Shown: positions 1,313 to 47,225, numbered from the stretch's first letter. The stretch is DNA of 64,000 nt from Naegleria gruberi (GCA_000004985.1 GG738846.1), one strand, 5' to 3'. Made by a program: numbers and translations. The notes: generated from the letters alone by a model not told the origin.

Positions 1313-3279
1313 ATGAAACAACACCCAATTTCGGGCCTTAACAATTCTTCACGTAGTATTAGTAATAATAATAAGAATTTGAGAGCATCACAACAACAAC
1401 AGGGTGGGGAAAATGATTCATACAATCTTAATAGGAGTGGATTTAGTGCGGTAAGCATTCGATCAAGTCAGACATCTTCAGTGAAGAGTTATCATGCTCC
1501 TTCTTCTGAAGCCTTCATCAAAGTGGTCATGAAAATGGTTCGCATCATCATCAGCATTTAGGAGGAGCAAATATTGTGAGAGGAGGTGCTAGTCTTTCAT
1601 CTTCGGGACGTAATAATTTATCTTCATATTTTGAGGTGGACGATGATGAGGAAGAGGACTTGTTGAATAATTCTACCACAACGCCTCAACAACAAAACAA
1701 TGAAAAGATGATGGAGGAAAATCTTGAAATTGGATCATTGAATACGAGTCAAATAACAAGTACTGCCAGTAATTATTCAAACTATCCACCATTGGCCAAC
1801 AATTCATTCAGTACTAATCCTCCACTTGTGGAATCATTGAAAAACTCAAAGAAAGCAGCTTCACACCAGCAACATGACAAGATTTTGAAACACTTTTATC
1901 AGGAGAGTGATGAAGAATCCATTCCAGAACCGAGAGTTTATTCTCCTCAACAACAAAAGCAACAACACTCATCACCACAAGCTCCTCTTTCTCAAACACG
2001 GTCTGTCTCTTCAAAGACATCTTCAAAGAAAAGTAGCAGTAACAAACACAACCCAATGCTGGAACATCAACCTCCTCAGCCATTTCCAATGTTTCCAAAT
2101 CCATACCAATTCTTTCCAAACTTTAATTATTACCCATTCTTTCCACCGCAATATGGTGCCAATATGAATGCAGACGCTATTACGGAAATGCAAAAACTCT
2201 ACCCAAATGTACAAGCCAGTAATGATACATTCATTACTGAAAAGTCGGTCGAAAGCTCCTCGTTCTTTGAGAAGGATCAATTGTTGGATGTTTTAATATC
2301 GGAGAGTAAGCAAATGAAGTCGGTAATTGAGCATCAATCCGAATTGATTAATGTAATTTTAAAAAAGTTGGATGAAGTGAATGGAAAACTGGATGTATTA
2401 AAAGCCCAAAATAGGGATAAAACCAACCAGGTCAGTAATACAAACTCCCCAAATACAGCCTCTCTTAAATCATCCACAAGATCCACAAGCAAACAACCAA
2501 TAGATGAGACAGACCTTAATAATCACTCCAAGACCAGCAATAGTATGATTAACAACACGAGCCACTATCAATTCCATACTGATAATAGCATTCTCAAGAA
2601 ATCACCTCCAGCCTCTCCTGTTAAACCTGCCACTGCAACAGTTTCAAATAGCACTGAATCGTTTAGGTATGCAAATTCAATTCCTAGCCCTTCAAACTCT
2701 CCAATCAAGCCAATTTCAAAAAGTGCAACTCTATCTCCAAAACCAAATAGTCAGAGCCCTAACAATACAAGGTTATCAACCAACTCATCTACCAATCTAT
2801 ATGGCTATTCTAGTCCACTTGTAGATTATGGGTCAAAGCATTCAACACCAAAAACAAACCACCATTTAAATTCCTCGATTTCAAATCTCAGAGATTATGG
2901 AAGTTCAAAATCAAACTCACCATCCAATCACTTCTTTGAAAGTGTCAGTAAGAAGAAACCAATGATATCACACGATATGGATGATTCCTTATTGAATAGC
3001 AGCAAAATGACTGACTCTTTAGATTTATATTCTCATGCTGACGATTCTTTTGTTTACAACACCTCATATGTGAGCAGTTGCAGTTCAACTCCTCCAGAAC
3101 CATTTTCCACTGACATGCAACGATATCTGCATGAAAACATCCTCTCGGGTAGTACCTCTAAGAAGGATAATGTCAAAGATTCGGATAGCACCTTTGTTAA
3201 AAAGAAAGATTATTCCAATTATTCGTCTTCACCTAACGCAAGCATTCCTCTAAAGAGTTTTTCTAAAATTGATGTGTAA
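1313..3279 (+). CDS. S/N/Q/P-rich low-complexity protein with one coiled-coil-like segment. The two track ORFs (1313..1561 in frame 2 and 1576..3279 in frame 1) are very probably one gene.
   Basis: The ATG at 1313 opens a serine-rich ORF. The downstream ORF's reported M is GTG, and its frame is open back to 1510 (SLHQSGHENGSHHHQHLGG...). The two frames overlap over 1510..1558, so a 1-nt indel near 1507-1510 or the candidate intron 1451..1554 would join them. I recognise no conserved domain. Confidence 0.45.
1451..1554 (+). other. Candidate intron (GTAAGC...CAG, 104 nt) that would join the 1313 ORF to the 1576 ORF in frame. It is weak because its composition is coding-like rather than AT-rich; the alternative is a frameshift.
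   Basis: Length mod 3 = 2 restores the frame. The donor is gtaagc at 1451, and the acceptor AG ends at 1554. Confidence 0.25.
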
Positions 3280-22190: not shown

Positions 22191-22822
22191 ATGGTTGCAA
22201 GGTATTGACCGACCATACGAATTAAGGGGTTGAAAAGCAAGAAATCCTGCCACATCACTTAGATACCACTATTTCACTGTGGCTTGAGGATTGTTATTAT
22301 TGAATAGATCGACTGCTGTCGCCTAGTAGATGCATTGAGTGGAGTTAGTGGCGAAGAGATATTGCCTTCCACAATCATCATTGATAACCGTCCTTTAAAT
22401 TCTTCAACCTCAACATGAGTGAATATACTTTGTCATGTGGTATAATATATGAACTTTGTACTTAGATGCCGCTTGCTCCTGAAAGCTACTTTAACTATCA
22501 TCTCAATGTAGTGGTGCATTGCAAGGGGTTCCAAATAAGTTGCACCTCCACTAAACAAAGTGTTGCACAAAAGTGGCTGTCTGGTTGAGCACAATCCAAG
22601 CTAAATTAAAAAAAAATCAATATACCCTATCGCTTATTGCCTCAAAAAATTGTTTTCCTTCATCACACAGTAAAAATACATCATCCTTAAATCTACGACA
22701 AGGACAATTTTCAAAACAACATTAAAAACAACAACAATCAACTCTTGAGCATTTCCAACAACAATTACGCAGTCTAGTTTATTATATTCATACAATCATC
22801 TTCATTGTTGGGAATTTAGAAA

Positions 22823-25561
22823 ATGGGAATCAATAAGGTTACACCAATAGAGAATTTTCCAACTCCCTCCTATAACAACCACACGTTGGATCCCAACGCT
22901 TGCGAATTGCAGGAAATATCATCAAATGGATCTTTTAATTATTTACAATCATCAATAGGGAAATTGAGTGCTAGAAGTTTTGATGTGAGGGCCGTTACCA
23001 AAACTTCCTTCTCCAACACTATTCATGTCTCAAGCAAACGGATGGGGAGACCAGATACACCTCCCCCGAACGACCTCAAAAGTATAATTCCCTGGTTCAG
23101 ATATAATTGCTTAACACTGGCTAACTTGGTGATTGTGTTTGTGCTCATATTTATATTATTGTTCTGTATTGCTTTTGCCTTGACCATTGTGCTCTTCACA
23201 GGTCATATTTCATCAGAATTGAGTTCGGTAACAATTGGTGTCATAAAATCCAAGGTGGATCTCTTTCTGAAGGAACGATTAGGTGTCGTAGAGACTGTTG
23301 CCTTTACTGCTCAACAAGATGTACGAATGCTTATCAATCAGTTTGCTTATTCCCCATCACCATTCTCCTCTTCTGCTCTCTCTTCCCATATCAGAGAATA
23401 CCTCTCCTCACGCTTAATTTACCACAACATTACCTCGATAGGGTTATATTTTGAAAATTGCTTGGGCAATGCAAACACTTCTTCCATGTACAAATGCCAA
23501 CTTGATCAATCAACAGATTTTGTAAATAGCTATATTTGGATGAATCAAACAATGAATTCAGATTTGAACACTTACCAAACAAGTGAACATCGAAATACAT
23601 CCATCACCATTGATACCTCCCAACCTCTTCAAACCATAGTCTCGAGTTCCACTAAAATTCCATTAAACTTTGAAGATTCAACTCTCCTCCACTCTGATTC
23701 CGCCTACCGTACCTTTTCCAATGCATTCTATTTAGATATGAAAGACAAACTTGTCAACCTGCCAGCCTATCAAGCTCTACAAGGTGTATGGTCACCATCC
23801 TCTAAAATAGATCCATCCAAATTTAATCTAGTCTTTACTGTGCCTATTTTTGATGCCAATAATTTGCAACTCTATGGAATAACCCAGGTGGAATATCCCT
23901 TACAAGCTTTGGCTCATTTAATGAGGACATTTACTTATCAATCAAAGGGTTACATTGTTCTTTCAGATTTGAACACTGAAAAAGTGGTTATTAGTTCTCT
24001 TCCAGATTCTTACACTCTTAAATCGATCTATGATATTAAGGAACTGAACATTGGTAAACTAATGACGTATCTCAAACAGAATTCCTTCCTCGATTTCAAT
24101 TCTGAAATCTCAGTCAGCGGAGTTGAATTTGAGGGGCTGGTCTACAATATGCTCAATACAAAATTCTCCTACAATAACGTTAACTTAGGGATGACCATTG
24201 TATTGGTCGATGATTCGGTTCAAGAATTCCACAATGATACCCTGTACTTGGCTATTTGTATTTCAGTTGGTTATGTAGTAATTGGACTTGTAATGGCTAT
24301 TATTTTAGGGTTCTTAATTTCGAAACCTCTCAAAGCATTGAGTGTTGAGTTTGGTCACATTAAGCACATGGACCTTGAGAAGGTTAGACAACACTTTTCA
24401 ATGTTTGGTGAATTCCAAGTTCTCTTCCAAAAGTTGGATGAAATGGTTGTTTGGTTGAATGATGTTCGTTCTTTCATTCCTAACAGTATCTTGATGGAAA
24501 TTAGAGGTGATTCAATTGACAATGATGTTACAGAGACTGAAATTGTTACGACAAACATCAATGTAAAAGACAAATTAGCAGAGACCAAAGGAAGAGCAAG
24601 TAGTGAAATTCCAGAAAACTCAATCGCTAACATTGCAAAGGGGTTCAAGACCTATCAAGAATACTCAGTTTTGTATATGCGTATCATGGACTTGGAATCA
24701 TTAACAGTTACCGAGAGAGCATTCTACTTTGAAAAGGTTCTTGAAATTTCATCAAAGATTGCAAAGAAAAACAATGGTGATATCCAATTATTGGATATTA
24801 GCAGAATACGTATTTACTATTGTGATCCAAATAATGAAAATGCCTCCAAAAAGGTGATTACAATGGCTTTGAAAATTTTGAGTGTTGTTGCTGATTTTAG
24901 CTCAACAATGGAGCAACAAGGAAAGTTGCCGTGCAACTTGATAATTTCAATCTCTACGCAGAAGGCTCTCGTTGGTAATATTGGTACTAGGGAGCATAGA
25001 ATCCACACCATTGTTAGTAGATCCATTTCATTGTGTGAACAAATGATGCTCATCGCCAAATCATTGAATATTTCACTTATTGTAGATTCTAACTCTTGTG
25101 CTGCAAACTTGGGAAACTATGTTTATAGGCCAGTTGACAGAATTTCAGTGGAAGACGATTTGATGGTTATTTATGAAATCTTTAGAGAAAATCAAGTAAA
25201 TGACCAAGAATGGATGTACGAACTGGATCAAAAGGAAAAGAATAGTAGCTACAATGAATATCAAAGTGCATTCCAAACCTTATTGAAGGGAGGACCCAAA
25301 ATTGAAGAGTACCGTGAAGCCATCTTGAAAGTTAGACGATTCAAAGGATCTAATGGTTTTGATCGAGATCTTACTGCTGACCATCTAATCTTTATGCTGG
25401 AAAGAGTTTCTGAAAGTTGTGAGAGAGGCCTTTCTGAAAAGTTGAGCCCACAATTCACTTCATCCTATCAATATTGTTCCAGAATATATACAGAATGGGA
25501 AAATAAGTTTGGTATGGATGTGCTGAAAATTAGACCAGTTGAAATTGTCAATAATAAATAA
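22823..25561 (+). CDS. Two-TM receptor-like protein with an extracytoplasmic sensor domain, a HAMP-like linker and a class III nucleotidyl cyclase homology domain, possibly catalytically degenerate
   Basis: TM1 is LTLANLVIVFVLIFILLFCIAFALTIVLF, followed by an extracellular region of about 370 aa, then TM2 YLAICISVGYVVIGLVMAIILGFLI. After it, YSVLYMRIMDLESLT...ALVGNIGTREHRIHTIVSRSISLCEQM follows the class III cyclase pattern (F.DI.GFT ... G.V.G.IG ... VN.ASR), but the positions of the transition-state Asn and Arg appear substituted. Confidence 0.5.
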   Translation: MGINKVTPIENFPTPSYNNHTLDPNACELQEISSNGSFNYLQSSIGKLSARSFDVRAVTKTSFSNTIHVSSKRMGRPDTPPPNDLKSIIPWFRYNCLTLANLVIVFVLIFILLFCIAFALTIVLFTGHISSELSSVTIGVIKSKVDLFLKERLGVVETVAFTAQQDVRMLINQFAYSPSPFSSSALSSHIREYLSSRLIYHNITSIGLYFENCLGNANTSSMYKCQLDQSTDFVNSYIWMNQTMNSDLNTYQTSEHRNTSITIDTSQPLQTIVSSSTKIPLNFEDSTLLHSDSAYRTFSNAFYLDMKDKLVNLPAYQALQGVWSPSSKIDPSKFNLVFTVPIFDANNLQLYGITQVEYPLQALAHLMRTFTYQSKGYIVLSDLNTEKVVISSLPDSYTLKSIYDIKELNIGKLMTYLKQNSFLDFNSEISVSGVEFEGLVYNMLNTKFSYNNVNLGMTIVLVDDSVQEFHNDTLYLAICISVGYVVIGLVMAIILGFLISKPLKALSVEFGHIKHMDLEKVRQHFSMFGEFQVLFQKLDEMVVWLNDVRSFIPNSILMEIRGDSIDNDVTETEIVTTNINVKDKLAETKGRASSEIPENSIANIAKGFKTYQEYSVLYMRIMDLESLTVTERAFYFEKVLEISSKIAKKNNGDIQLLDISRIRIYYCDPNNENASKKVITMALKILSVVADFSSTMEQQGKLPCNLIISISTQKALVGNIGTREHRIHTIVSRSISLCEQMMLIAKSLNISLIVDSNSCAANLGNYVYRPVDRISVEDDLMVIYEIFRENQVNDQEWMYELDQKEKNSSYNEYQSAFQTLLKGGPKIEEYREAILKVRRFKGSNGFDRDLTADHLIFMLERVSESCERGLSEKLSPQFTSSYQYCSRIYTEWENKFGMDVLKIRPVEIVNNK

Positions 25562-25605
25562 TCTACTTCAAGTTTAGATTAATTTTGTTAATACTTTGAC
25601 TTATT

Positions 25606-28600
25606 TTATTGGAAAGCAACTTCAACCTTATCCTCATTTACAATTCTCTTTCTTTGATAAAAGAGCATGTAAGCATTTGAAGTTTTCAATTCCTTCTCTG
25701 TAAGTGGCGAAACAGACGAATCGTTGAAACAATACCATCTACTATCTTCACAATTTTTAGCATATGAATAATAGTGACCACCATAGAGACCTCCTGTATG
25801 ACAACTGATAGCAAATAAATCATAGAGCATGTGGTCTTCTGGCTTTCTAACCATATAATCACTCAAGTCAAGATTATAGATTGGATAATCAACAAGTGCA
25901 TTCACTTTCTCCCTACCAAATCTATTAAAACCAAATCTCTTGAGATGGATAATTAAAATTTCAGGGCTAGACCAAACACAACACTGTTTGAATGCACAAA
26001 CATGTTTCTTACAATCAGGGCAATACCATTGGTCTCTTTCTCCGAGTTGTTCCATTTCACTATTCAATTTCAAACAATCGTCCAGACTAATGTTTTGAGA
26101 TCGAGGGGCCTCGTTAGTAATATTTTGTTCTGCAACATGAACGGTTACTGTTTCTTTAGTTTTCAACATTTTAACATCAAACCAATCAACAGAGAAATAA
26201 TAATTATCCTCCTGTTGTAAGTATTCCTTAACCATATCATCTCTATCATCATAAAGAATTGGAATGCCACATGTATCATTTACAACCTCAACAGACTTGT
26301 CAATAACTGTAAATTTAAATGGAATATTGGCTGGATCAAAGGCAGGGAAAAGTGTCTGACGTAAAATTTCAATTCTTTCAGCAAGAGGATATTCTTGTCC
26401 ATCCTCTTTGGTCGGTTGTAAATTAGTTTCAGGGTCTTCTGGTGATTTCTTGGCTACTCTTTGTAAATGAGACCAAAGAATATCATAAAAGTCCTTTGTG
26501 GAAATTTCCTTCTTTACGAATAATACAAATGGAATACCCACACTCTTGAATTTTCCCTCTTCGGAAGGGTATCTCTGTCTTATTGGAATAATTAAATACT
26601 TCTCAGGAGAGTAATCATCTGGAACATCAGCACATAATACTTTTGGAGTTGATTTGGCGTTAGGATCAATAATCTTAACACTATCATTAAAAGAGAATTG
26701 TCTTCCAATAGAAAATCCAGCCATGGCAAAGAATTGGAGTTTTTGTGGGTCTCTTCCACTAACTTTAGCAAATTGAGTGGCAAGTACTTGAACAGTTGAT
26801 TGCTTTGGTAACTCGACAGTATATTTAGTTGCTCTTCCTCCATTTTCTGTATTCAATAAAATTACATCCAATCGGTGAGGCATTGATTTACCAACAGGAA
26901 CTGAAAGATACTATATAAGTGTAAATAATTATTCAATTTAAAAAAATCCTTACCATAAATGGGTCAAACTTGACTGAAATCTTGTTACAAACTTTGAATA
27001 CATATTAGCAATAAAATACAAATAACAAACTTACCATTACAAATAAGAGTAGACTTGAGTTGTCCTTGAAATAAATCTACAATTACACTATCATTTCTCT
27101 TCAAATGTTGTTCCCAAGATTCTTTTGCAATCACTTCATCAGGTCGTCCGTCATAATCCTTTGCTTCAATATATGGTTTGTTGATTACCTTGTTTAAATC
27201 TTCATGTAAACCATCCAATAAATATGATGTCAATTCTTGAGAGTCGTGTTGATTATAGCCAGAGAATTGAGGGGCAAATTGACTGATGGCATACTTAAAG
27301 TTGGTTGGAGTAAAGTTGGCACCACCACTCCACATTTCTTTAATGAGAGAGGCAAAGTTATTAGCAAGTTTACCCTTAGTTCCCAATGGATTGCTTGTAT
27401 TGATATGCTTTGCATAGAGTCCACTTATAAAGTAATTTTTAAGAGGTACAGTGTTAGAGAGACATTGAATAGCACTGTTCATAAAGCACGTATTACCCAA
27501 ATTTCTCAATCCACACAAACCTCTCTTTTTACTCTTACCTGAGGCAGGAGTTGCAATACCAAATGTACTAAATGAATAATCCTTGATACTATCCCAAATT
27601 TCACTTAATTTACTTCTCTTTTCTTCGTCATCTTCATCTTCCTCTTCATCACTAGCATCGTTTGATTCTTGCTTTTTTTTGAAAATTTCAAGTGGAAATT
27701 CTCCACCATTTTGTTTAAACTCAAAAACGATACTTTGTCCATCAAAAATTAGAGCTTTTTCAAGAGTTTGACTCTCACTGTCAGCAATGGCACTGGCGCT
27801 TGAATCTTCCTTTCGCCACATTCTGCAGTTTTTCAAAGTTGATGTTTTCTGAATTATTGTACTTTCAAAAAGAACACAACCAAGCATTTTCAAATCCTTG
27901 GTAGCCAATTTTTTGCTTACTTGAATTGTTGTCTTGGTATCTTTCATGATTGTTCCCTTTTCATTGACCATATAAATATTGAGAATATATGGATGAATTT
28001 CTACACGTCTCATTTGATTATTTTCCAAGCCATCCACAATAACTCTTCTGACGATTTTTTGACTATTATTAATTTCTCCATACCAATGGGCTAATAAATC
28101 ATAACTCTGTATAATTATTAGTAGTAATTATTATTATAATTAGTTTGACAATAGTATTATAATAAAACTAACCTCCTCGGAAACAAACTCAAAATCTTGT
28201 CTTGTAATATCTCTTTTAAGAACTGTTGTGAATAGAACAGAACCATCTCTTGTAAAATTGGTAAATTCTGGTACTAATGGATGTTTTAAACTAAAACCAT
28301 TATAAATGAGAACTTCTTGAATAATGTCACTATTGTCAATTGGACCAGGAGCAGGAGATTTTTTATGTGATGTTTCCTTGTGTTTCTTCTTTCCAACATT
28401 TTCATTTGGATAATTTACATATTCTTTCCAAATCTTGAACCATGATGAAGAAATAATTACAAATGTGCTTCCTGCTTTAAAAGGTGACTTGTTTTCAATT
28501 GATTCTATTTTTTCCCTTTGTTTTTTAGCATCGGGTTTTGTGTAACTCGTCTTTTTACTCTTACTCTTGGCAGTAATGATCAGAGAAATGCTTCCTTTTT

Positions 28601-33195: not shown

Positions 33196-35123
33196 ATGAT
33201 GACGTCAAATCATTCATTTTCACTTGGATATTTAATGATTCTTCTCAAAGTAACAACAGCAATACTGTTACTTCTTGGCAACATTTCTCATGCTAAAATT
33301 GTTCAAGTTCAAGTTTTATCTAGACATTGTGATCGTTCTCCAGTTTCTCAATATCAAATTCCGACGGATCCTTGGGATTGGCAAGGATTTTTAGCCAAAT
33401 ATTCGTATAGTGATGGTGTTTCTCCTTCAATTCAGATTCCTTTCGGCCAAGGACAATTAACTGGACTGGGTCTTCAACAATGCTTTCAAGGTTTGTTTTT
33501 TGTTTCGAATAATTATCATGTAACACTCAATGAAAACTAGTTGGTAAACATTTTAGAAATAGATACTTGTCAAGATTTATGAATAATACCCAGAATAATG
33601 GTATGTTAATATCTCTGATAATTTAAATTCAATTCGGATAATTGTCATCACATAAAGGAGTGAATGAAAATCCAAATGTCATTAGTAATTTAGTTTATCC
33701 ACAAAACAATCAAATGGATACCACCACTGCTCACTGGAATCCTCAGGACTTTCGTTTCTATGCTACCAATTATGATAGAACATTATTTTCAGTATTCAGC
33801 ATTGCACAAGCAATGTTTCCGAATGGATATGGACCACTGAGCGATATTTCATTGAATGGACAAGTGAATGCAATGCCACAAGGAATGCAACCAATTCCAA
33901 TTCATACTCAAACATCAACCAATGAAATTTGGATGTCTGGCTATGGCAAATGTCCAACTATTGATCTCAACAATGAGGAAAATCAACAAAGTAGTGAATA
34001 TTTGAAAATGATTGCCGATTTTAAACCATATTTGAAAATTATTTCTAACTTGACTGGTATTCCATTTGAGAATGGGTTGATTACAATGAATAGTCAAAAA
34101 TCATTCCTATCAAACATTTTCTCGAATACTGAAAGCAAAGATGAAACAAGAGTTCCATTCTACAAATATCTTGCTAGCCCAGAAGATGCTCCAACACAAC
34201 AAGAATCCACACTATCAAGCTATCCACAATTTACAACACCAATTGATTTTTCAAACTTCTACTTGGTTTTGGATTTACTCAATGTTCAATACTCACACAA
34301 TCAACTCAATTTGAAGGGAATTTTGGATATTTGGGAAAAGATTCTACAAATTGGAGATGCTTCAACCTATAGTACCTTCTCAAGAAAGGTTCAAGGCACT
34401 TTGGGAGGTGGTCCACTCGTTCAAAAGATGATTGTTGAAATGGAAAAGATGATTAGCTCTCTCAGTGGTTTGAAGGCAGACAAGCAAGCAGATAATTATG
34501 GAGCTGATCCTGATGAAAGTAAGACAGTTCCATACAAGTATGTTCATTACAGTGCTCACGACGTGACAATCTTATCCCTTATGGCTGCTCTCAAACTCTC
34601 TGATGACTATCCTCAATTGAGAGCAATTCCACCGTATGGATCTCAAATCTTATTTGAACTTCATCAAAGTGACAATGTACCAGCTGGTCAAAAACCAACC
34701 CTTGACGATTTTTATATTAGAATCAGATATAATAGAGGCTTTTCTGATGATAGTTTCACAGAGTATAGTTTGATTTCTCTGGCTGGAACTGGTTGCAAAC
34801 CAGGAAAGGATTCTAATTTCAATTGTTCCTATTCTAATTTCAAGAGTGTTTGTCAAGCTGATGCCATTCCAAAAGATTGGTGCTCTGAATGCAAGAATAC
34901 TAAGGCAGACATTTGCGTTAGAGCTTTATATGAAAAGGAAAGATCACTAACTACTATCATGCTTGTAATTCTTCCAATCATGGGAGGTTTATTATTGATT
35001 CTTTTGGTCTTAATTGCCATCATTCGTTTGAGAAGCAGTAAACTGTCAAGAATGGTCAGAGGAACAGCTGATACCACAACCATCAATAGTGAAAGTGCAA
35101 CTCTCTATCAAACTCTTCATTAA
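33196..35123 (+). CDS. Histidine acid phosphatase (lysosomal/prostatic-type) with a signal peptide and a C-terminal TM anchor. Three exons: 33196..33490, 33541..33600, 33658..35123.
   Basis: Signal peptide MMTSNHSFSLGYLMILLKVTTAILLLLGNISHA. The catalytic motif is RHCDRSP, a variant of RHGxRxP, and a downstream HD motif occurs in YSAHDVTIL. The splice-joined sequence reads ...QLTGLGLQQCFQVGKHFRNRYL..., and the C-terminal TM is LTTIMLVILPIMGGLLLILLVLIAI. The track start at 33103 is upstream of the first ATG. Confidence 0.6.
33491..33540 (+). other. Intron 1 (50 nt, GTTTGT...AACTAG) of the acid phosphatase gene
   Basis: Phase 1; the junction is consistent with the downstream exon. Confidence 0.5.
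33601..33657 (+). other. Intron 2 (57 nt, GTATGT...AAAG; an alternative acceptor 3 nt downstream is also in frame) of the acid phosphatase gene
   Basis: GTATGT donor, AT-rich, and the frame is restored into exon 3. Confidence 0.5.
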
Positions 35124-35381: not shown

Positions 35382-38300
35382 ATGTTTGAAGGAATTGCTT
35401 CGAGCATTATTGTTAAACTCCTCGGAGATTATATTGAAAATTTAGATAGTAAATCTCTTAAAATTGCTGTATGGAGCGGAAGTGTTAATCTAACCAATCT
35501 AACGTTGAAAGCTTCGGCTTTGGATACATTTGATTTACCAATTTCTGTCGTACAAGGATGTGTTGGTAGTATTGATGCATCGATTCCTTGGCAATCCCTT
35601 TCTAGCAGTCCTGTGATTGCCAAAGTGAGTGATGTCTTTCTGGTTGTTCAACCAAAAAAGTGTGATAAGGTATGTATTATTTGCAATTAGGATTCTAATT
35701 ACTTGTTCGATTTATATAAATATATATTTAATAATGTAATTATTGAAAATAATTTGGAAAATATATTTGGATTTACAAATTTAACGTTTGTTTGGATTAA
35801 TTTCTTCTATCATCAACAAACTGAAAATGTTAATTTTCCAAATTTATTTTACTTCTTCTTTGGATTAATACCCTATAATCTATTATTATCAACTATGCAA
35901 TATTATTATTTGTTAATATTAATCTTACTCACTTGATAGTATGATGAACAATCGGAGAAGGCTAGAGCATTATTGGCCAAACAAAGAAGTCTTCAAAACC
36001 ATGAATTGTGGAAGGAACAACAAGAGGCTGTGGATGACATCAAACAAGATAAAAAGACAGACGATAAACAAGGGGATACTTTTGTTTCTAGAATGACCGA
36101 AACTATATTGAATAATCTTCAAGTGGAAATTTCCAATGTACACATTCGTTATGAGGATGGTTCCAATCCAAAGAATCGTATAGTTTTTGGTATTACCATG
36201 GAAAAACTGTCCTTGAAGAGTTGTAATGAAAATTGGGAGGAAGTTTTTATCAAGACTGTCCAAGCAGCTTTCTACAAGAAAATGTTACTTCAAAATTTAT
36301 CGTTCTATATGAACAATAATGAAATTGAACTCTTTTCAAAATCTGGAATGGATACTAAGAAATTCTCTCTCCATATGAAAAAGATTATCACTGAAAACAA
36401 GTTCTACAGAAGATTTATTGTAAGTCCAATTAATGGAGAAGCCAAACTTGTCATGCAAAAGGAAGGAAATATCGATATGAGCAAACCTACAATGGTGGCC
36501 AATTTGGAATTAGACAATGTAAATTTATGCCTCGATGACAGACAATATAAGAATCTACTCTCAACTCTTGAATATATGAGTAACTACTCACGATTTGAAA
36601 GATTTAGACATTTGAGACCAAAGACAGATTACAAATCGGAAGAAAAGGGATTATGGTGGGAATATTTAATCAATTCTGCAAAGGATATTGTAGAGAAACA
36701 TCACTTTACTTGGCAACAAATTGAGGAACGTAAAAAGCAAAGAAAGGAATATATTGAACTCTTCAAGAGAAGTAAGGAATATCCATGGCAAAAAAAGCTT
36801 TCTGATTCGGAGAAAAAAACTCTCCATTCACTGGAAGACAAGATTGATTTTGAGGATATTATCTTTTACAGGGAGCTGGCCTATGAAGAATTAAAAATTG
36901 AAAAGCAAAAGAATAAGGCATTCCTTACAAAGAACGAAAAATCCTCTGGATGGTTTGGTGGTTGGTGGGGAAGTAAACCCTCAACTGCTACTCAGGAATC
37001 GTCTTCTGGAGAAGAATCACCAACTGCTTTTGAATTTACAGAAGAGCAACGTGAAGAGTTACACAAGACAATTGGTTACAATGCCAAGGAAAAGGCTCAA
37101 TCCATAGAGCTACCAGCAGATTATGTATCCTATCAAATTAATTTTTACCTAAAGCAAGGAGAACTTAAACTTAGAAATGCCAGAGTGAAGAGTAGTGATC
37201 CAGATTCAGCCATTGTTAAAGGTGCCTTTAATAACTTTAGAACCGAGGTTGGTGTTAGAGCTCAGGGATCTGTCATTGTACGAGTGACATTGGATGATTT
37301 TGAAATTACAGATCATTTCTCTGATGTGACACAATTCAAAAAGATTCTCTCAAGAAGAAAGCAAGTTGGCCATTTGGCAGAAATTATTGTGGAAAATAAG
37401 CCTCTAGATGGTGAATCAGATTTGAAGGTGCAAATATTGCTTCAACAAGTTGACATTGCACTCAATGTTCCTCTAGCTCAAAAAATTCTCTCCTTCTTTA
37501 TCATTCCATCAAATTTGGACTTTTCTGCACTTCAAAACCTTGCTAAAAAGCAATTTGAAAGTTTACAACAACAAGCTCTCACACAATTGAAGGTTGCTTT
37601 GGAATCTAAAATGTTAATTGCTTTGGATGTGTTAATTTTGGCTCCAACATTTATTATTCCTATCGACTATAAGGATGAAAACTCTAAAATAGTATTACTC
37701 GACTTGGGTAAATTGAAATTCAAGAGTGATATTGATAAGAAAGAAAGAGAAAGGAGAATTAAGAATGAAACTGTAGAAGAAAAAGATTTTTATGATAGAT
37801 TCGACCTTGAACTTTCAAATATCCAAGCAGTCATTACAGATGTTCCAAGCTATAACAAACAAACAACGACAAATTCATTCCAACTTATCGAAAAGGTTAA
37901 TATATTTACCAAGTTGGGTATTCTCATTACAAACGATACCAACTATGCTGGAACTAAAATTGAAGGAACCATTCCTTCTATTAAGGTTAACCTTTCTCCT
38001 CTAGCTATGAATACCATTGTTAATGTAGCCAACAACTTCCTTGTTCTAGTGGATAATCCAACTGGTAACAGTAAGGAAGATGTTGAAATCAAGGGTGCAC
38101 TCAAGATCAAATCAGACCTTTTGACAAATGGTGAATTTAAACCATATTGGACTGAAGTGACAGAAAATGGTAAAATCATGCTCTACACCACAGAAAATGA
38201 TATGAAACCTTCAGGATGTATTTATATCGATGATAGATCCATTGAATATCAATTATCTGACAAAAATCCAGATTTAACAGAGAACCAACTGGCTATTGTA

Positions 38301-41300
38301 ATTCCTCAAGAGTCTGGTCCTACAACTGTAATCTTTGAAGCCGAAAGCAAAACTTTACTTGACAAGTGGTTTACCTTAATGTCCACCAAGAATGTTAACA
38401 AAAAGCTTAGTTTCGAATTGAGCAATAATGAAAAGTCTCATAATGAAGAGGAAAAACAAAAGAATGTCAAATTGAAACTCAACTTTAATTTGGGAGAATT
38501 CTGTGCCTCCCTTATTTATAACAAGAAGGTTGGAGAGAATGAATTCACTGAAATGCCACTAACAGATATCAAACTTCAAGATTTTGGTGTTGATATGGCA
38601 ATAAGACACTATGATACCATTATGAATTTTAGTTTAAAGACATTTACAATTAGTGACAAGACCACAACAGCCACTGATAAGTACATTTTAACATCAGATT
38701 TGCAATCAGATAAGAAACTTGCTGATCTTACTCTTATCCAAGTATCAGATCCTCTCTCTGAACATTACAAGAGAAATGCCGATTTATTGTTGGAGTTTGT
38801 TTTCCACAAGATGTTATTCAACTTTGATCCTATGTCCTTAACTACCTTTTTAATGTATATTTATGATGTTTTGGATTTGACTCAAAAGATCGAAGCAAGA
38901 GTTCCAACCATCACACCAACCGAAATGAACAAGAAATTTGAAAAACGAGACAAAAACAGAAATAGTATGGATTTGCATGCTAATTTGTCTGAGGTAAGCC
39001 TTGCATTGGTTCAGGAAGACTTTTCCAGCTTTGCCACTGCTACAGTTGCAGATGCTGATGTTTCATTCTCTATGAATGATTTGGGATTATGTGTAAAGGG
39101 TACAGTTGGTAACTTGCTTGGAATTGATGACTCTAATGATGGTACTATCTATAGAGAAATTGTTGGTCTCTCCACAACTGATCAAAAGTCTCTCATTACT
39201 TTTAGCTATATCCAAAATAATGAAAGACCTGAAAATGTTGCCCCAACTCAACCTTATTATAACAAGTTCTTGAAACTTGTTTTGGAATCTGTCAAGATTG
39301 TCTACTTGAATCGTGTTATTGTCAAGCTTCAACATTTTATGCAGAATGGTCCTCTTTGGGATGCCCTGGCTGCTGGAGGTAAAAAAGTTTCTGAATACTC
39401 TAAAGACTCAGTCTTGAAACAATATGAAAGTTTGGAACTTTTTAGTTTGGATGTTAAATTGGTTAATCCTCTCGTAATTGCTCCAATGGCTTACAATAAT
39501 CCAGATGTTATTGTTGGTAACTTGGGTGAAATTACTGTTAGAAACTCACTTACTCAGAGAGAAGACTGTTGGATTGAGCTCTACGCCATATCCTTCACTC
39601 AAATGAATTTGCACACTATTACCAGTGTTAACAATAAGCAATTTGTTGGTGGTATGGATTGGTTGTTGGATGTTGAAAGACCAGTCGTAAACCCTCTGCA
39701 CAAGGTTCCAGGAGTATTCGTAAATATTGCTGTTTCTGATGTTGCTATGAATCTAACTCATGAACAATACCAAATGATTTTCAAAGTAGTGGATGGTAAT
39801 GTGAATGATAACGCTGGATTTTCTTCGTCAAATGAAGCTCTTACCAATGAGACTAAGAAGACTGAAGATAAGGTTCTCTCTGAATCTGATGCCAAAATTA
39901 CAGATCTCATTGTCAAGGTTAAATTCTCCAATCTTAATTTGACAGTTTTAAGAACAGCCGATGATCCATTGGCCAGATTGAATATGTACGATCTCAATGT
40001 TGATGTGAATACAAAGAGAAATGGATTGTCTGTAACAAAAGTTTCAATTCATGCAACAGATGCCCATGATTTGAGAAAGCAATCCGATAGTTACTTCAAG
40101 ACTTTTGTCGACACTAGAGAGGAGGAAAATTCTCAACACTTTATCAATGTAGACATTTATAACGATCCTGAAAAGTCTCTGGTAAAAGTAGATGTCAAGA
40201 TGGGCAATCCAAGAATTATTTTCGTTCCAGATATTGTATTCGAAATCCAAGACTTCTTTGTGACCATGAGACCAGAAAAGGGTCCAAAAGGAAAAATTCT
40301 TACCTATGAAACAATGCCATCAGGTGACATTCATATTAATTCTGACTTGACTTTGGGTCTGGATTTGTCACTTTCTCCAGTAAGAAGATTAGTTGTACAC
40401 AAGACTGAATCTGGTGTTGTCGAAGTTAATGGTAATGGTCATACTATTGATTTACCATATGATTCCGTATTCAAGGTGGATGAAGGTATGATTTTAAAGC
40501 TTGTCAATGTAAAGATTAAGAAGCAGTCAGACAAGACCTTGGAAGATTATGCAGAGCTTGGTGAAAAAGCCAAAATTTCTACTAATAATAGTGTTGTTTT
40601 TGTTGGTGATACGGATATTGAAAAAGAAGATAAGGCTACCATTGTAGTTGTATCAATTGACAATCCTAACGTAATGTTCCCAGTTAAGCCAAGCGATCCT
40701 AACAGTAGATTGATGGTTCTGAGATCTAAACTCAAATTCAAGATGGAAACAAGCGCTAACAAACAAAGCATTGTTGTAATGATTTCTGAAATGACAATGT
40801 TTGTTGACAGCTTCAATTCAACAATTATTTCAAAGAATAACATTCTCGAACCTCTCTCTCTTGATTTTGAATACTTGTCAAGTACTGAGCCACAAGCTGT
40901 GCACAATGATATCAAGGCAAGAATTGATGGCAATGTGAGGTCTAGAATCTCCTATCAAGATGTCAAGATGATAACCGAAGTGGTAAATCATTTTACTGAT
41001 GCAATGAGCAAATCGAAGAAGGAAGAAGTTCCTATTGCCTTTGAAGATGTTGAATTATCTGATGATTCTGGATCAGAATCTGAAGAAGAAGAATTTTCAG
41101 AAGCTAAGGATGAAACTGAACATATTGATGGTCAATTCGTACTTAATGACTATGTAGAGTCAAGAAATAACCTAGCCGTGATACCAACTGTTGAAGAGAA
41201 AACTAACAACAAGACTACAAACTTTTTATTCAACTTTGACATGACACCAGATCAATCTGTATCCATCCTAGTGGTAGACGATGTAAGAGGTTATGATATA

Positions 41301-44300
41301 CCATTAATTACTTTTACTATGAGAAAAGTTCACTTGATTGAAACTAAAATGACTCAATTGGGCGACACTTCCTCTATTAAGGCCAAGTTGATTGGTTACA
41401 TTCAAGCTGATTATTATAACTTGAAGATTGCCTCTTGGGAACCAATTCTTGAACCTTATGGTATTGAATTCCTCTTTAGAAGAAAGCCAAATACAAAATC
41501 AGCAACTCCAAATGTAGACAGATTTGAAATTAGAGATTTGGATATTCCAAAATACAAGCAAATGTATCATCCTGAAGAGTTTGATGGTTTATTGTTGAAT
41601 GTTACCCAATCAATGATTACTACCGTTTCTTCTACAGCCAAGTTGTGGAAAGATGAATTTTATACAGAAACAAAGGTATCAAAGAAGTTTGATCCATACT
41701 GTATTAGAAATCATACAGGTCATATTATCAAATTAATTTTCCCATACAATACTCAACTCCAAAAAGCAGACATGTACGAGATTGGAACTGGTCAAGAAAT
41801 GAACTTTTCTCTACCAGAAGATAAAACCAAAACTGCTCATCATGCCATAACAATTGATGTTCCTGGATTTAACAAATTACAAGTTGAATTGAAACAAACT
41901 GGTAAACTCCATATCAAGAATAATAAGAATGAATTTTGTATGGTTGATAATGATTTGAAAGAAGGTAGAAAGATTATAACTATCAGTTCTGGTATTCAAA
42001 TTAGAAACTTGTGTACTATGGATTGGGAAATTGGTTCTCTCAACATCTCCTCCAAGATGATTACCAGCTTTGGTATTGTTAATCCAAAGGAATATATTGG
42101 TATTCCACTGACATCTGTATCAGAAGGAATTCTTTGTATGAGACCTTGTATTGGAGAGGGCTATCAATGGAGTTTACCATCTGGTGGTCTCAAATTTACA
42201 GAATTACTCAAACTCTACAAGGGTAGTAAGAATGTCACTATTACAAATCAAAAGGGCCCTAACATGTTTGCTGTTGTGAGAACCAACTTTGCCCTCGATG
42301 CAGACTATCAACAATTCAGAGAAAAGTATGCCGAAAATCCACTCTTGTATCAAAGATTCTACTGTACTCTTGATATCAAACCACCTTTGGCAATTGATAA
42401 TACTCTTGGAAAGACTGTCGATTTCACAATTATTGCTCAATCACCTCAATCAAATGAAAGAACAGTTGTACAGGAAGGTACCATGTTGAAGGGTGAAAAA
42501 TTATTTGTCTACTCTACAGAAATGAATAACAACATACTCATAAGAGTAAAGGTTGAAAAGGAATGGGTGACTAAAGAATTGGGACTTATCCATTTGGCAA
42601 AGAGAGACGGCACAATGACACAACAATCAACACATATCAATATTGAAAATTCAACAGGAAATTATTCACGTATTTACATTGACTATTCTGAAGTGAATAC
42701 ATCTGCCTACCGTGAAATTATTCTATTCTCTCCATTCTGGATTGTTAATCACACTGGAGAGAATGTAGGAGTTAGAAATTCTTCCACAAGTAACAAGCCA
42801 TTCATTGTTCCAACTGGTGAAACTTTAATGTATGCAGAGACTTATGATCGTGAAAAGATTAGCATTACATGCAACGATTCTGCACCAAGTCCAGCCTTCT
42901 CATTAGCTTCAAGTTGAAGAGAAAGAGAAGATCTACAATTGGCGAGAATACTAAACCATCTCTTACTCATGCAGCCTCTTCAGCTAGTATGATGGGAGAA
43001 GGACAAATGAGTGATTATACAGAGGAAGAGGAGGAAGATTTCAATTTATTCATGCTTGCTGAAATTAACCAAATTGGTGTGTCATTTATTGATAACTCTC
43101 CAAGTGAAGTTGCCTACTTGTTGTTAGGTGGATTGACGATGAGATATGCCACAACAGACAAACATCAATTTATTGAATGTGTGCTGTACAAACTTCAATT
43201 AGATCACCAAGATTATGAGGCTACCTATCCTGTTATTTTATGTAATGTTAATGAGGCAGGACAAGAATTTATTCACTTTAGTTTGTGTAGATCTGTTGAA
43301 AACAATACCAATGTAAATACCTTCCCATACATGTCATTAATGATGAGAGAAGCTCGTTGTGAAATTGACTACCTCTTTATTTCCAAGTTTGTGAAATTGA
43401 TAGGTATCTTGTCAACAGACCAAGATCAAAACAATGAAGCTGATGCTCAAATTGCTGAAAGAATGACCAAACCTGTTGAAATTCCAAAGTCTGAAGCTGA
43501 TGCTGAAAAGTTCTACTTTGAAAATCTCGAATTGCACCCTGTAAAGATCCATTTGACATTCAAACTCAATCAAGCAGAAGATGATAGTAATCCACTTTTG
43601 ATCTTGTTTAAATCTGTTGGTGTCACTCTTACAAGAATTGATAATGCTCCAATGAGATTTAACTCACTCATTCTTAGCCATCCGTTCATGACACTCAATG
43701 CACTTATTGATAAGGTTAAGAAACACTATATTCGTCAAGCCACAGTCCAATTCTACAAGATTTTGGGTTCTTTGGATATTATTGGTAATCCAGTTGGATT
43801 GTTCAGTGATATTGGTACTGGTGTCGTTGACTTTTTCTATGAACCTGCCTCTGCCATCACAAAGAGTCCTGAAGAATTTGCCAGTGGTTTAGCAAAGGGT
43901 TCTATGAGTTTATTGAAGAATTCAGTCCATGGTATTGGTAATTTTACTTCAAAACTTACAGGAAATGTTGGTAATGGTATTGCCTTTTTGACATTTGATA
44001 AGGAATACAATCAACAACGTGACAGACAAGCCAATCAAAAACCAAAAGATATTAAGGAAGGTTTGGCATCTGGAGCCAAGTCTTTATTCCGTGGTATTTA
44101 TGGAGGTGCTACTGGTATTGTTATGCAACCTGTAAAGGGTGCTCAAGAAGAAGGTGCTGTTGGTTTTATTAAGGGTGTTGGCAAAGGTATTATTGGTATT
44201 CCTCTCAAGCCAGTTGGTGGTATTATTGATATGGCAACAAGAACTGTTGAAGGTATCAGTAACAGTAGTACTACACTCTTCACTCGTGTCAGGTATCCTA

Positions 44301-44740
44301 GAACTCTGGCTGACAATGGTGCTGTTTTAAGATATTCATTAACAGATGCTTATGCCAAGTATCTTACTGTCTCTATTGATGATGGTGCCTATGCAAAGAC
44401 CAACAAAGCTGTCTATTACATGCCAGATTCAACAAAGGCTGCTGTTTACTTGATTACTGACAAGTTTATTTTGAAGGTGGACCCAGTTGAAAAGAAGGTA
44501 AAATGGAGAATGCAACTTTCCAAGATTATGAAGGTTGAATTGGTTTCAGAACCTACCGATGCCATTAAAGTGGTAAGCAATGAAAGAGAAAAATCAATTT
44601 TTGGAACTTCAGGAGCAAACATTACGAGATTATTAGATTCATTTGATAAGGAATATTTACACAGATTTAAGAACAAGCTTAATATTGAGTTATCGAGAGT
44701 TTTCAAAGAACAGCAAGAGTTTGACGTTGTAGATTATTAA
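35382..44740 (+). CDS. vps13: VPS13-family lipid-transfer protein of about 3030 aa. Exon 1 is 35382..35669 and exon 2 starts at 35940. The reading frame breaks between 42863 and 42917 and continues in frame 2 to 44740.
   Basis: The N-terminal chorein domain is MFEGIASSIIVKLLGDYIENLDSKSLKIAVWSGSVNLTNL..., and VHIRYED is conserved. A C-terminal ATG2_C/VPS13_C-type block FFYEPASAITKSPEEF...IKGAQEEGAVGFIKGVGKGIIGIPLKPVGGIIDMA matches human VPS13A FFYEPYQGAIQGPEEF...IKGAQKGGAAGFFKGVGKGLVG...GGIIDMA. Confidence 0.8.
35670..35939 (+). other. Intron (270 nt, GTATGT...GATAG) in VPS13, the longest intron in the window
   Basis: The donor follows ...KKCDK directly. The intron is extremely AT-rich. The acceptor precedes YDEQSEKARALLAKQRS..., which aligns with VPS13A. 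Confidence 0.7.
42863..42917 (+). other. Frame discontinuity in VPS13: the frame-0 stop TGA is at 42915..42917, while frame 2 opens from 42863
   Basis: Inserting one T in the TT at 42914/42915 gives a continuous ...AFSLASSLKRKRRSTIGENTKP... Confidence 0.6.
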
Positions 44741-44816: not shown

Positions 44817-45125
44817 TTATTGTTGATATTGGAAAGCATTTTGCTCAATCATTTTATCCAATTCGAATTGAATTATTTCCGTTTTGTCTTCCATTACAAA
44901 TAAATGGGTTTCATCAAGGTCAAAGAGAACAATTTCTGTTCCGATATTTAAATTGAACATCATTCCGATCATAAATATTCCAAGCATTAGATGATTAATG
45001 TATTGAAAGTTAGTAAAATAAACAAATCCATGCATACCATTGTTGTACTTTTTGTTCAGATACAATACAAACTCCTTGATTGCCGGATCACATTCTAACA
45101 ATACTCCACTGATGGCGTTTACCAT
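44817..45125 (-). CDS. gtf2h5: General transcription factor IIH subunit 5 (TFB5/p8/TTDA). Two exons: 45125..45038 and 44935..44817.
   Basis: MVNAISGVLLECDPAIKEFVLYLNKKYNN-E-IVLFDLDETHLFV...MIEQNAFQ matches human GTF2H5 [26 protein letters not shown]...FIIQDIDDTHVFV...LMDQNAFS. The 102-nt intron has no stop, so the track ORF reads through it. Confidence 0.65.
   Translation of the reverse strand: MVNAISGVLLECDPAIKEFVLYLNKKYNNGMHGFVYFTNFQYINHLMLGIFMIGMMFNLNIGTEIVLFDLDETHLFVMEDKTEIIQFELDKMIEQNAFQYQQ
44936..45037 (-). other. In-frame 102-nt intron (GTATGC...AACAG) in TFB5
   Basis: If retained, it inserts a hydrophobic 34-aa segment absent from TFB5 orthologs. Splice signals are present. Confidence 0.55.
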
Positions 45126-45323
45126 TTTTTTTAAACTTGTTTTAAAATTTGATTATAATTTTGAAATAATTTTGAATTAATGGATTTGATGAATGCAAGT
45201 TGTGTGAAAATAAATGAACACAATTTAGAAACAAAGAGAGAATTAATTTTACAAAATAATTTATCAATAGTTTTAATTTACAACTAGTTGATCCTAGTAA
45301 ATTGCATCAAAAGATGACAAAAT

Positions 45324-45599
45324 TTAGAAAGAACAAGTGGCAGTCTTTCCTTGTTCAACACTTTGCACAGTTTGTTGTCCTTGCAAGGATTCAAAAACTT
45401 TAACATGAACGTGTTCAGAGTCACCAACTTTAATCTTCAACTTGTGATTGATTCCGGCAACAACTTGAGTAGAATGAGCAATAACTTCAAAGATATCAAA
45501 AGTACGAGCAGTGATTTCTTCTACTTTAGCCTTGATGCTTTGAGCAAGGGTTCTTGATTCTTCAGTGATTGGTTGATTGTGTGCACCGCCGGCCATCAT
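45324..45599 (-). CDS. Cystatin A/B (stefin)-type cysteine protease inhibitor
   Basis: 91 aa starting MMAGG, with an N-terminal conserved Gly and the QVVAG motif (STQVVAGINHKLKIKVGD...HVKVFESLQ), compared with stefin B SQVVAGTNYFIKVHVGD...HLRVFQSLP. Confidence 0.7.
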   Translation of the reverse strand: MMAGGAHNQPITEESRTLAQSIKAKVEEITARTFDIFEVIAHSTQVVAGINHKLKIKVGDSEHVHVKVFESLQGQQTVQSVEQGKTATCSF

Positions 45600-46199
45600 G
45601 TTGTTGTTTGTATTTATGGAATATTTTTTAATTGTTTTGAAAAGAAGCTTAACGGAAAATCAGAGAGATTTTTATACCCAACGGAAAGATAAGAATAGAT
45701 TTTAAGAAGGAATTAAGAGTTACCTTGTGAAATGATTTCCTTTCGAATGGATGTTACCACTTTTTGTGTTCATCATGCAAGTGATTGAAGGTTATCAGGA
45801 ATTACCAAGGACCTTGAATTTGTCACCAAGCTTGAGAACGGATTCAGGTTAAAATGAATTTGATTTTTTAAAAAATAAAACCATAATTTTATTTAAAATT
45901 GATTTGCCGTTCAAAGCCAATCAGTAATTTTGTTCCAATTTTGATTAGATGATGTATACACATTTATTAAACCCAGTTCACTTTGAAGATTATGTGAAAA
46001 CAACACTTTCCTAAGTAACTAATCTGATCAACTTATTTATTGCCTTAAAAAAGAAAATTATGTTTCAATTCAAAAAATATGATTTTAAACTTTTTTCAAG
46101 TAAACTTTCAAAATTAATGTTGAGGTGAGTTATGGAACTTAAAATAATAGCCTAAATCTCAATGATAATAGATGAAAGTTTAAATAATTTTATTATAAA

Positions 46200-47225
46200 T
46201 TACTTCTTGGTTGTCTTCTTTGTAACTTCAACCTTCTTCTTCTTTGGCTTTGGTTCTGCTACTTCTTCCTTCTTCTTTTCTTCCTTAGTTGACTTCTTAG
46301 TTGTGACTTTCTTAACAACAGGTTCTTCTACTTTTTCTTCAACCTTTTCTTCAACTGTTTCTTGTTCTTCTTGTTCCTCTTCTTGTTCTTCCTCTTCTTC
46401 TTGCAATTCTTCCTTGGTTTCTATCAACTTTCTCTTCTTGATTGTTGGTTGAGCTGAAAGGATATCATGGAACTTTTCTTCAGCATGTACAATTGCTTTC
46501 TTCAACTTGTCTGTTGTATTAGTCAAGAGAGAAGTGGAAGAAATTTCACCATCGGCTTTAGTGGAGAGAGCTTCTTGCAAAATCATGGCAATCTTGTCAA
46601 TATTGACATCTTGTCCGAGACTAATTGTTTCCCTCTTAGACTTGCCTTGTGATCTAATCACAGCATTTTGAGTATTACTCTTATCACCGTGAATATGTAA
46701 TTTACCTCTCATAATTAAATTGGCCAAAAGAACTTCACCTTCACCAATAGTGGTCTTTCCTTTAGAAATAGTAATAACATTGGCAATATAGAGTAAGTTT
46801 GTCAATGAAAATTCGATATGTTCCTTCAACATTGGGAGAGCTCTACTACCGAATGTATATGACTTTTGTGATGGTAATAAGTCCACAAGCTTATCGGAGT
46901 GGAGAACTCTCTTAACATTATCTCTCAAGATGGTTTCAGGAATTAAACACTTTCCGGAGGCTTGCAAAACCTTCGAATGGAGTTCAGTCTTTGTGTATTT
47001 TCTTCCTAAAACATTAATGAGTAATTCTGATTTTGGTTTTCTATTTAAACGTCCTTTTGCGAGAGCTTCAGAATTTCCTTTCTTTTTTGTTGTTGTTTCG
47101 GCTGATGTTGTTGCTTCAACTGGTTTTTCAACTTCTCCAACCAGGTTGTTGAATGCTTCCATCATTGGGTCTTTTGATGGTTGTTTGGCTGGCTTGGACT
47201 TCTTAACTTTTTGCTTAGCTGGCAT
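46200..47225 (-). CDS. Lys/Glu-rich nuclear-type protein with a central region that may adopt an H2A-like histone fold (speculative)
   Basis: The N-terminus is basic, and the C-terminus alternates E-rich and K-rich blocks (EEEEEQEEEQEEQETVEEKVEEK...KKKKVEV). The centre, RALPMLKEHIEFSLTNLLYIANVITISKGKTTIGEGEVLLA, loosely resembles H2A AP.YLAAVLEYLTAEILELAGN...IIPRHLQLA. Confidence 0.45.
   Translation of the reverse strand: MPAKQKVKKSKPAKQPSKDPMMEAFNNLVGEVEKPVEATTSAETTTKKKGNSEALAKGRLNRKPKSELLINVLGRKYTKTELHSKVLQASGKCLIPETILRDNVKRVLHSDKLVDLLPSQKSYTFGSRALPMLKEHIEFSLTNLLYIANVITISKGKTTIGEGEVLLANLIMRGKLHIHGDKSNTQNAVIRSQGKSKRETISLGQDVNIDKIAMILQEALSTKADGEISSTSLLTNTTDKLKKAIVHAEEKFHDILSAQPTIKKRKLIETKEELQEEEEEQEEEQEEQETVEEKVEEKVEEPVVKKVTTKKSTKEEKKKEEVAEPKPKKKKVEVTKKTTKK

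Follow-up and report, generated by a model that had tools for sequence, protein, structure and literature searches.

Yeast Vps13 and human VPS13A-D, which are bridge-like lipid-transfer proteins, are among the known proteins closest in kind to the one described here. In the VPS13 family, the VAB domain consists of a complete set of six repeats, and the C-terminal modules are encoded in one frame with the N-terminus. In yeast, VAB repeats 5 and 6 suffice for the binding of Pro-X-Pro adaptors, and the invariant Asn that is mutated in VPS13D ataxia sits in VAB repeats 5-6 (PMC7068118). The gene investigated here is a heterolobosean VPS13 paralogue, coding for a bridge-like lipid-transfer protein, and neither family feature was found in it: the VAB domain is incomplete and the C-terminal modules lie out of frame with the N-terminus.

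The gene is located in a window of 64,000 nucleotides, which is the whole stretch of DNA analysed. Of ten long ORFs there, seven match Naegleria gruberi NEG-M proteins exactly (D2UZB9 to D2UZD5; scaffold of 1,001,995 bp). The organism is a heterolobosean; the original prediction had pointed to dictyostelid orthologues, which are the wrong comparison, and the orthologue from N. lovaniensis ATCC 30569 (PYSW02000055.1, L001 4008-14348; C9374_012143 and its neighbours) was used instead. The assignment to VPS13 was confirmed by Pfam, with VPS13_N, VPS13_M and VAB upstream of the frame break and VPS13_C downstream of it. VPS13_N (PF12624) was matched by exon 1 with E=3.6e-35 and by exon 2 with E=5.9e-122, the profile crossing intron 1 from position 93 to position 97, and an intron in the corresponding position is present in N. 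lovaniensis. Exon 1 is 97% identical to L001 4008-4292 of N. lovaniensis and is directly followed by the donor GTATGT at 35670, while exon 2 is 67-84% identical to the orthologue and extends, in VAB, through repeats 1-3 and ~60 residues into repeat 4.

In frame 0 (positions divisible by 3), the sequence is open from 35940 to 42917, with TGA at 42915-42917, and the upstream product including exon 1 has 2421 aa. This agrees with the predicted protein of about 2420 aa, and the break is real in the sequence as it stands. The open stretch of frame 2, 42863-44740, overlaps the frame-0 ORF by 55 nt. Its 625 open codons would arise by chance with P ~4e-24 (local off-frame stop frequency of 0.083), and the product from the ATG at 42869, two codons into the ORF, has 623 aa. 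The length, the frame and the VPS13_C domain (PF25037, E=9.8e-10) proposed for this downstream part were all recovered, but the proposed SHR-type block was not; Pfam gave VPS13_C only, with no VAB or SHR-type match in this ORF. The frame-2 ORF is 72-89% identical to L001 12512-14345 of N. lovaniensis, and the homology begins at SFKLKRKRRST. The features of the locus are listed in Table 1.

Table 1. Features of the VPS13 locus, numbered from the first letter of the window
Feature	Coordinates	Strand	Remarks
VPS13 exon 1	35382..35669	+	96 codons, ATG at 35382; Pfam VPS13_N profile positions 1-93
VPS13 intron 1	35670..35939	+	270 nt, GTATGT...TTGATAG, 19.6% GC
VPS13 exon 2, frame 0	35940..42914	+	Pfam: rest of VPS13_N (97-883), PH-like insertion, VPS13_M, VAB 52-323 of 570
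Deletion junction zone CTTCTCATTAGC	42896..42907	+	placed by codon-by-codon comparison; 12 nt match both flanks, in different frames
Premature TGA	42915..42917	+	frame-0 stop
Frame-2 ORF, VPS13 C-terminal ~610 residues	42863..44740	+	post-VAB linker, ATG2_C-like region, VPS13_C; read in a different frame from exon 2

A PH-domain match (PF00169, E=1.4e-5) was observed at 38082-38375 (+), between VPS13_N and VPS13_M, covering residues 715-812 of exon 2. In the conceptual protein, this PH-like domain is ~810 residues away from the N-terminus, and the N. lovaniensis orthologue gave a match too, flagged as weak. The VPS13_N profile match stops at the same point (profile position ~886) in a homologue from Logan (P0024). 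An internal PH domain so far N-terminal is outside the textbook VPS13 layout.

A query of 620 aa centred on the one-T repair of the break retrieved two N. lovaniensis proteins as the closest relatives. By tblastn with one of them, P0001, residues 1-577 corresponded to window 41271-42911 in frame 0 with 70% identity, and residues 835-998 to window 42905-43378 in frame 2 with 73% identity. Residues 578-834 had no counterpart anywhere in the 64-kb window, which rules out that the missing segment was relocated within it. Alignment of the repaired translation to an orthologue had been proposed as a check; with N. lovaniensis, colinearity was not restored, and the protein alignment contained one clean gap of 259 columns at the break, with flanks that were 71% identical. 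As compared with N. lovaniensis, 257-259 codons are absent from N. gruberi, and these encode two whole VAB repeats (5 and 6), the final portion of repeat 4 and a linker of ~70 residues. The VAB profile (PF25036, 570 positions) was matched by N. gruberi at positions 52-324 only, even with the one-T repair included, and by N. lovaniensis at 48-565. The corresponding ranges were 30-564 and 61-567 for two full-length transcripts of Pharyngomonas kirbyi, and 59-565 for a Logan homologue. Six VAB Asn motifs were found in N. lovaniensis (residues 144, 243, 398, 523, 619 and 732) and four in N. gruberi (residues 2017, 2116, 2247 and 2363 of the conceptual protein), and the junction at residue 2421 lies 58 residues beyond the fourth motif. 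A HMMER search with P0001 over 1.84 billion representatives yielded 631 homologues. Among them, every full-length homologue that matched both N. gruberi flanks (40/40) had extra residues at the junction, ranging from 211 to 1054 with a median of 257. These comparisons indicate that the 259-column gap is not an insertion in N. lovaniensis.

The 12-nt zone at the junction can be read in both ways. In frame 0, CTTCTCATTAGC is translated as FSLA and fits NFSLT at the left N. lovaniensis breakpoint; its frame-2 translation, LLIS, fits KLITQS at the right breakpoint and is followed by the conserved FKLKRKRRST. The tblastn matches to the two flanks overlap at 42905-42911. The sequence CTCA is present at both breakpoints in N. 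lovaniensis, which represents the undeleted state here in place of N. gruberi, and the two copies are 772 nt apart, a distance of the form 3n+1. The difference in tblastx offset across the gap was 784 nt, also 3n+1. A deletion of 3n+1 nucleotides would move the downstream codons to frame 2 and create the TGA, which is present at 42915 because the sequence after the deletion is read with a shift of one base. No long direct repeats flanking the segment were found in N. lovaniensis. The demonstrable microhomology is only the 4 nt of CTCA, and this is weak evidence for the mechanism.

From the sequence comparison, the frame break is the junction of an internal deletion of ~770 bases, either in an ordinary broken allele or through an assembly or cloning fault; it is not a one-letter error and not recoding. 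The reading that we prefer, with a probability of roughly 0.55, is a real and recent deletion allele. By the yardstick of N. lovaniensis, another species with ~70% identity from which the intact state was taken, ~772 nt would have been deleted at 42896-42907, probably by a microhomology-mediated event that left the present zone as a scar, and possibly in one haplotype. VAB repeats 5 and 6 would have been lost in full by this event, together with the tail of repeat 4 and ~70 linker residues. As its length is not a multiple of three, the ribosome would meet the TGA at 42915 after 2421 residues, and the ~610 remaining codons, with the ATG2_C-like region and VPS13_C, would be left out of frame. 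The allele is thus predicted to encode a C-terminally truncated VPS13 that is most likely non-functional. A recent pseudogenising mutation was among the options of the original prediction.

No other lesion was found in the gene, and its two flanks are equally conserved (70% and 73% identity to the orthologue). Since both halves are free of lesions and equally conserved, the event must be recent, if the deletion is real. An old, decayed pseudogene was rejected in view of the single lesion, the conserved flanks and the 625 open codons. Naegleria is described as being, for the most part, diploid and heterozygous (PMC9928731), and it is therefore plausible that a deletion in one haplotype was caught by the consensus. 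The intact downstream frame of 625 codons is equally expected if the true genome is undeleted.

The alternative that survives best, possible but doubtful, is that the junction is an artefact of the reference, produced by a deleted plasmid or fosmid clone in thin coverage or by a mis-join, and that the gene of living NEG-M is intact and in frame with six VAB repeats. Apart from the junction, neither half of the gene has a flaw and the two are conserved to the same degree, as they would be in a functional gene, and the breakpoints share the short CTCA; clones in E. coli can also lose sequence between short direct repeats. In addition, the junction found no independent confirmation in the sequences searched. 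On the other hand, the NEG-M consensus was derived from Sanger whole-genome shotgun sequencing of many clones (PMC9928731, Table 1), and a collapse by the assembler is unlikely, as in N. lovaniensis the segment is not bordered by long repeats. The assembly also agreed with an independent N. gruberi-like contig without any gap over 5.5 kb. This contig is from a soil/water metagenome in ENA (ERZ929261; run ERR1078381, PRJEB11402) and corresponds to window 22770-28308 with 99.78% identity, 12 mismatches and 0 gaps. Another contig of ERZ929261, over the cystatin gene at 45059-45901, encodes an identical protein with one synonymous mismatch, and its small indels and a diverged patch are confined to the AT-rich non-coding flanks. 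The contigs of this metagenome represent a second strain or haplotype, and offer a possible independent check of the reference.

By exact look-ups and homology searches, no contig from ERZ929261 or from JGI metagenomes reached the VPS13 junction, and the JGI metagenomes gave nothing either by protein alignment or with an exact 27-mer adjoining the junction. For the 9.4-kb gene (35382-44740), whole or in part, homology search retrieved no N. gruberi protein, including the searches with N. lovaniensis queries; the latter are the informative ones, because self-matches were apparently dropped by the search. Seven neighbouring genes are present in the same protein collection, and ten guessed gene models for the locus had no exact match in it. 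The locus is on the + strand, with the NAEGRDRAFT models EFC49924 and EFC49929 on its two sides. Either the reference annotation has no model at 35382-44740, or the model is absent from the collection. The homology matches included no N. fowleri orthologue, and a literature search on Naegleria VPS13 found nothing specific.

It is quite unlikely that a real deletion has left the gene functional, whether as a rod of 2421 aa, as two polypeptides with the second one started from the ATG at 42869, or by a cryptic intron that gives VPS13 without VAB repeats 5-6. The downstream 625 codons are open and conserved and have an ATG near their start, introns as short as 43 nt occur in N. gruberi, and frame-restoring GT..AG pairs are easily found. 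An 86-nt pair (42889..42974, GTCCAG donor) had been described as the only in-frame intron, but we counted 119 formal solutions, for example 42830-42906 (GTATGC donor) and 42913-42974. The accompanying judgement that such an intron is not credible was nevertheless upheld. The candidate introns have 37-43% GC, as against 15-21% in the four genuine introns that could be recovered from the window, in which the donors are GTAAGT, GTATGT, GTTAGT or GTAAGG. They would also cut out residues that are conserved in N. lovaniensis, namely YAETYDREKISI and SFKLKRKRRST; SFKLKRKRRSTIGENTKP, likewise inside candidate introns, is conserved as well. All 119 candidates failed on GC content, and every one of them removes conserved residues. 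As for a second polypeptide, an internal ATG 7 kb from the cap is not normally used on a eukaryotic mRNA, and a recent lesion explains the open frame equally well. That N. gruberi really carries and uses the allele, with a VPS13 rod lacking VAB repeats 5-6 and with C-terminal modules that are missing, separately expressed or rejoined by a cryptic intron, is in our estimation very unlikely; if true, it would provide a natural test of whether VAB adaptor binding is dispensable for a VPS13 paralogue.

The short introns of the window are represented by the gene of a ubiquitin hydrolase, XP_002682869 (-), which has introns at 26911-26953, 26992-27034 and 28107-28172 (43, 43 and 66 nt; 15-21% GC). 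Motifs like TACTAAT or GCTAAT were observed near the acceptor in two of these three introns.

A single-base indel at the TT of 42914-42915, whether introduced in sequencing or by point mutation, with the gene complete in all other respects, is highly improbable. One T inserted after 42914 joins the two ORFs without a stop and gives ...AFSLASSLKRKRRSTIGENTKP... as predicted, and the N. lovaniensis assembly has four such one-base breaks in the same gene. However, this repair is not seamless: 257-259 codons are skipped, and the joined protein lacks residues that are found in the orthologue and in 40/40 homologues, so that its VAB match remains 52-324 of the 570 positions. Moreover, the site has no homopolymer run beyond the dinucleotide TT, and the assembly was built from Sanger sequence (PMC9928731, Table 1). 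On these sequence grounds, a single-base lesion is refuted as a sufficient explanation, and what had been taken as a single-base break or homopolymer error is the junction of a ~772-nt deletion of 3n+1 type, with the C-terminal 40% of VAB gone. The four frame switches of N. lovaniensis (L001 ~5115, ~9910, ~12975 and ~13768) lose no sequence. Two of them were inspected and look like one-base deletions (ACA-ATG present as ACATG, and GCC-GTA as GCCTA), and the orthologue is annotated as four separate proteins. The NEG-M and N. lovaniensis ATCC 30569 assemblies are from Sanger and PacBio sequencing, respectively (PMC9928731, Table 1), and the N. lovaniensis switches are probably PacBio indel errors. 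Finally, programmed -1 ribosomal frameshifting or another type of recoding, already placed last in the original prediction, has a negligible probability, because only the geometry suits it (55-nt ORF overlap, -1 shift), while 42863-42917 contains no X XXY YYZ slippery heptamer, the downstream 126 nt (MFE of -25.1 kcal/mol, z = -0.25 against shuffles) fold no better than shuffled sequences, and the N. lovaniensis orthologue reads through here in one frame for 257 more codons.

A second frame break of the same kind had been suspected in a gene at 1313, and no evidence of a frame error was found there. At 1313-3279 (+), a long ORF of low complexity is open in frame 1 from 1510 (first ATG at 1708), and its beginning is overlapped by an ORF of 82 codons in frame 2 (1313-1561). 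Neither homology nor domains link these two ORFs, and neither simple model is present in the protein collection.

For annotation, a one-base repair or a drawn intron at this locus would produce a false VPS13 model without the adaptor-binding site, and users of the N. gruberi reference should treat the VPS13 paralogue here as a deletion allele or a local assembly fault. The value of the result is mainly in annotation and its general interest is low; no new biology follows unless the truncated gene is expressed and functional.

The N. lovaniensis orthologue shares with the N. gruberi gene the layout of exon 1, intron and exon 2 and the PH-like insertion after VPS13_N, with 67-97% amino-acid identity along the whole length. 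Unlike N. gruberi, it retains the full set of six VAB repeats together with the linker, 257 codons more. The four frame breaks in N. lovaniensis lose no sequence, whereas the one in N. gruberi loses 257 codons. The flanking genes are not syntenic: in N. gruberi, a histidine phosphatase is located upstream (33642-35123) and cystatin downstream (44817-47225), while VPS13 of N. lovaniensis is flanked by a protein kinase upstream and Y_phosphatase2/RasGEF downstream, and the two loci resemble each other only within the VPS13 gene. The VPS13 region is present a second time in N. lovaniensis (P0002; C9374_000683, on a 725-kb contig), with 93% identity in the matched stretches and many small deletions; this copy could be a duplicate in decay or a haplotig of poor assembly.

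As compared with yeast Vps13 and human VPS13A-D and their six-repeat VAB, the order VPS13_N, VPS13_M, VAB, ATG2_C-like region and VPS13_C is recognisable in N. gruberi, but the N. gruberi gene lacks VAB repeats 5-6, has its C-terminal modules in another frame and contains an extra PH-like domain. With deletion null alleles and young unitary pseudogenes, the N. gruberi gene has in common one disabling out-of-frame internal deletion, a putative short identity at the breakpoints, as seen in N. lovaniensis, and the lack of secondary decay. It differs from microhomology-deletion alleles in that no more than 4 nt of microhomology are demonstrable and the allele is known here from the reference sequence alone.
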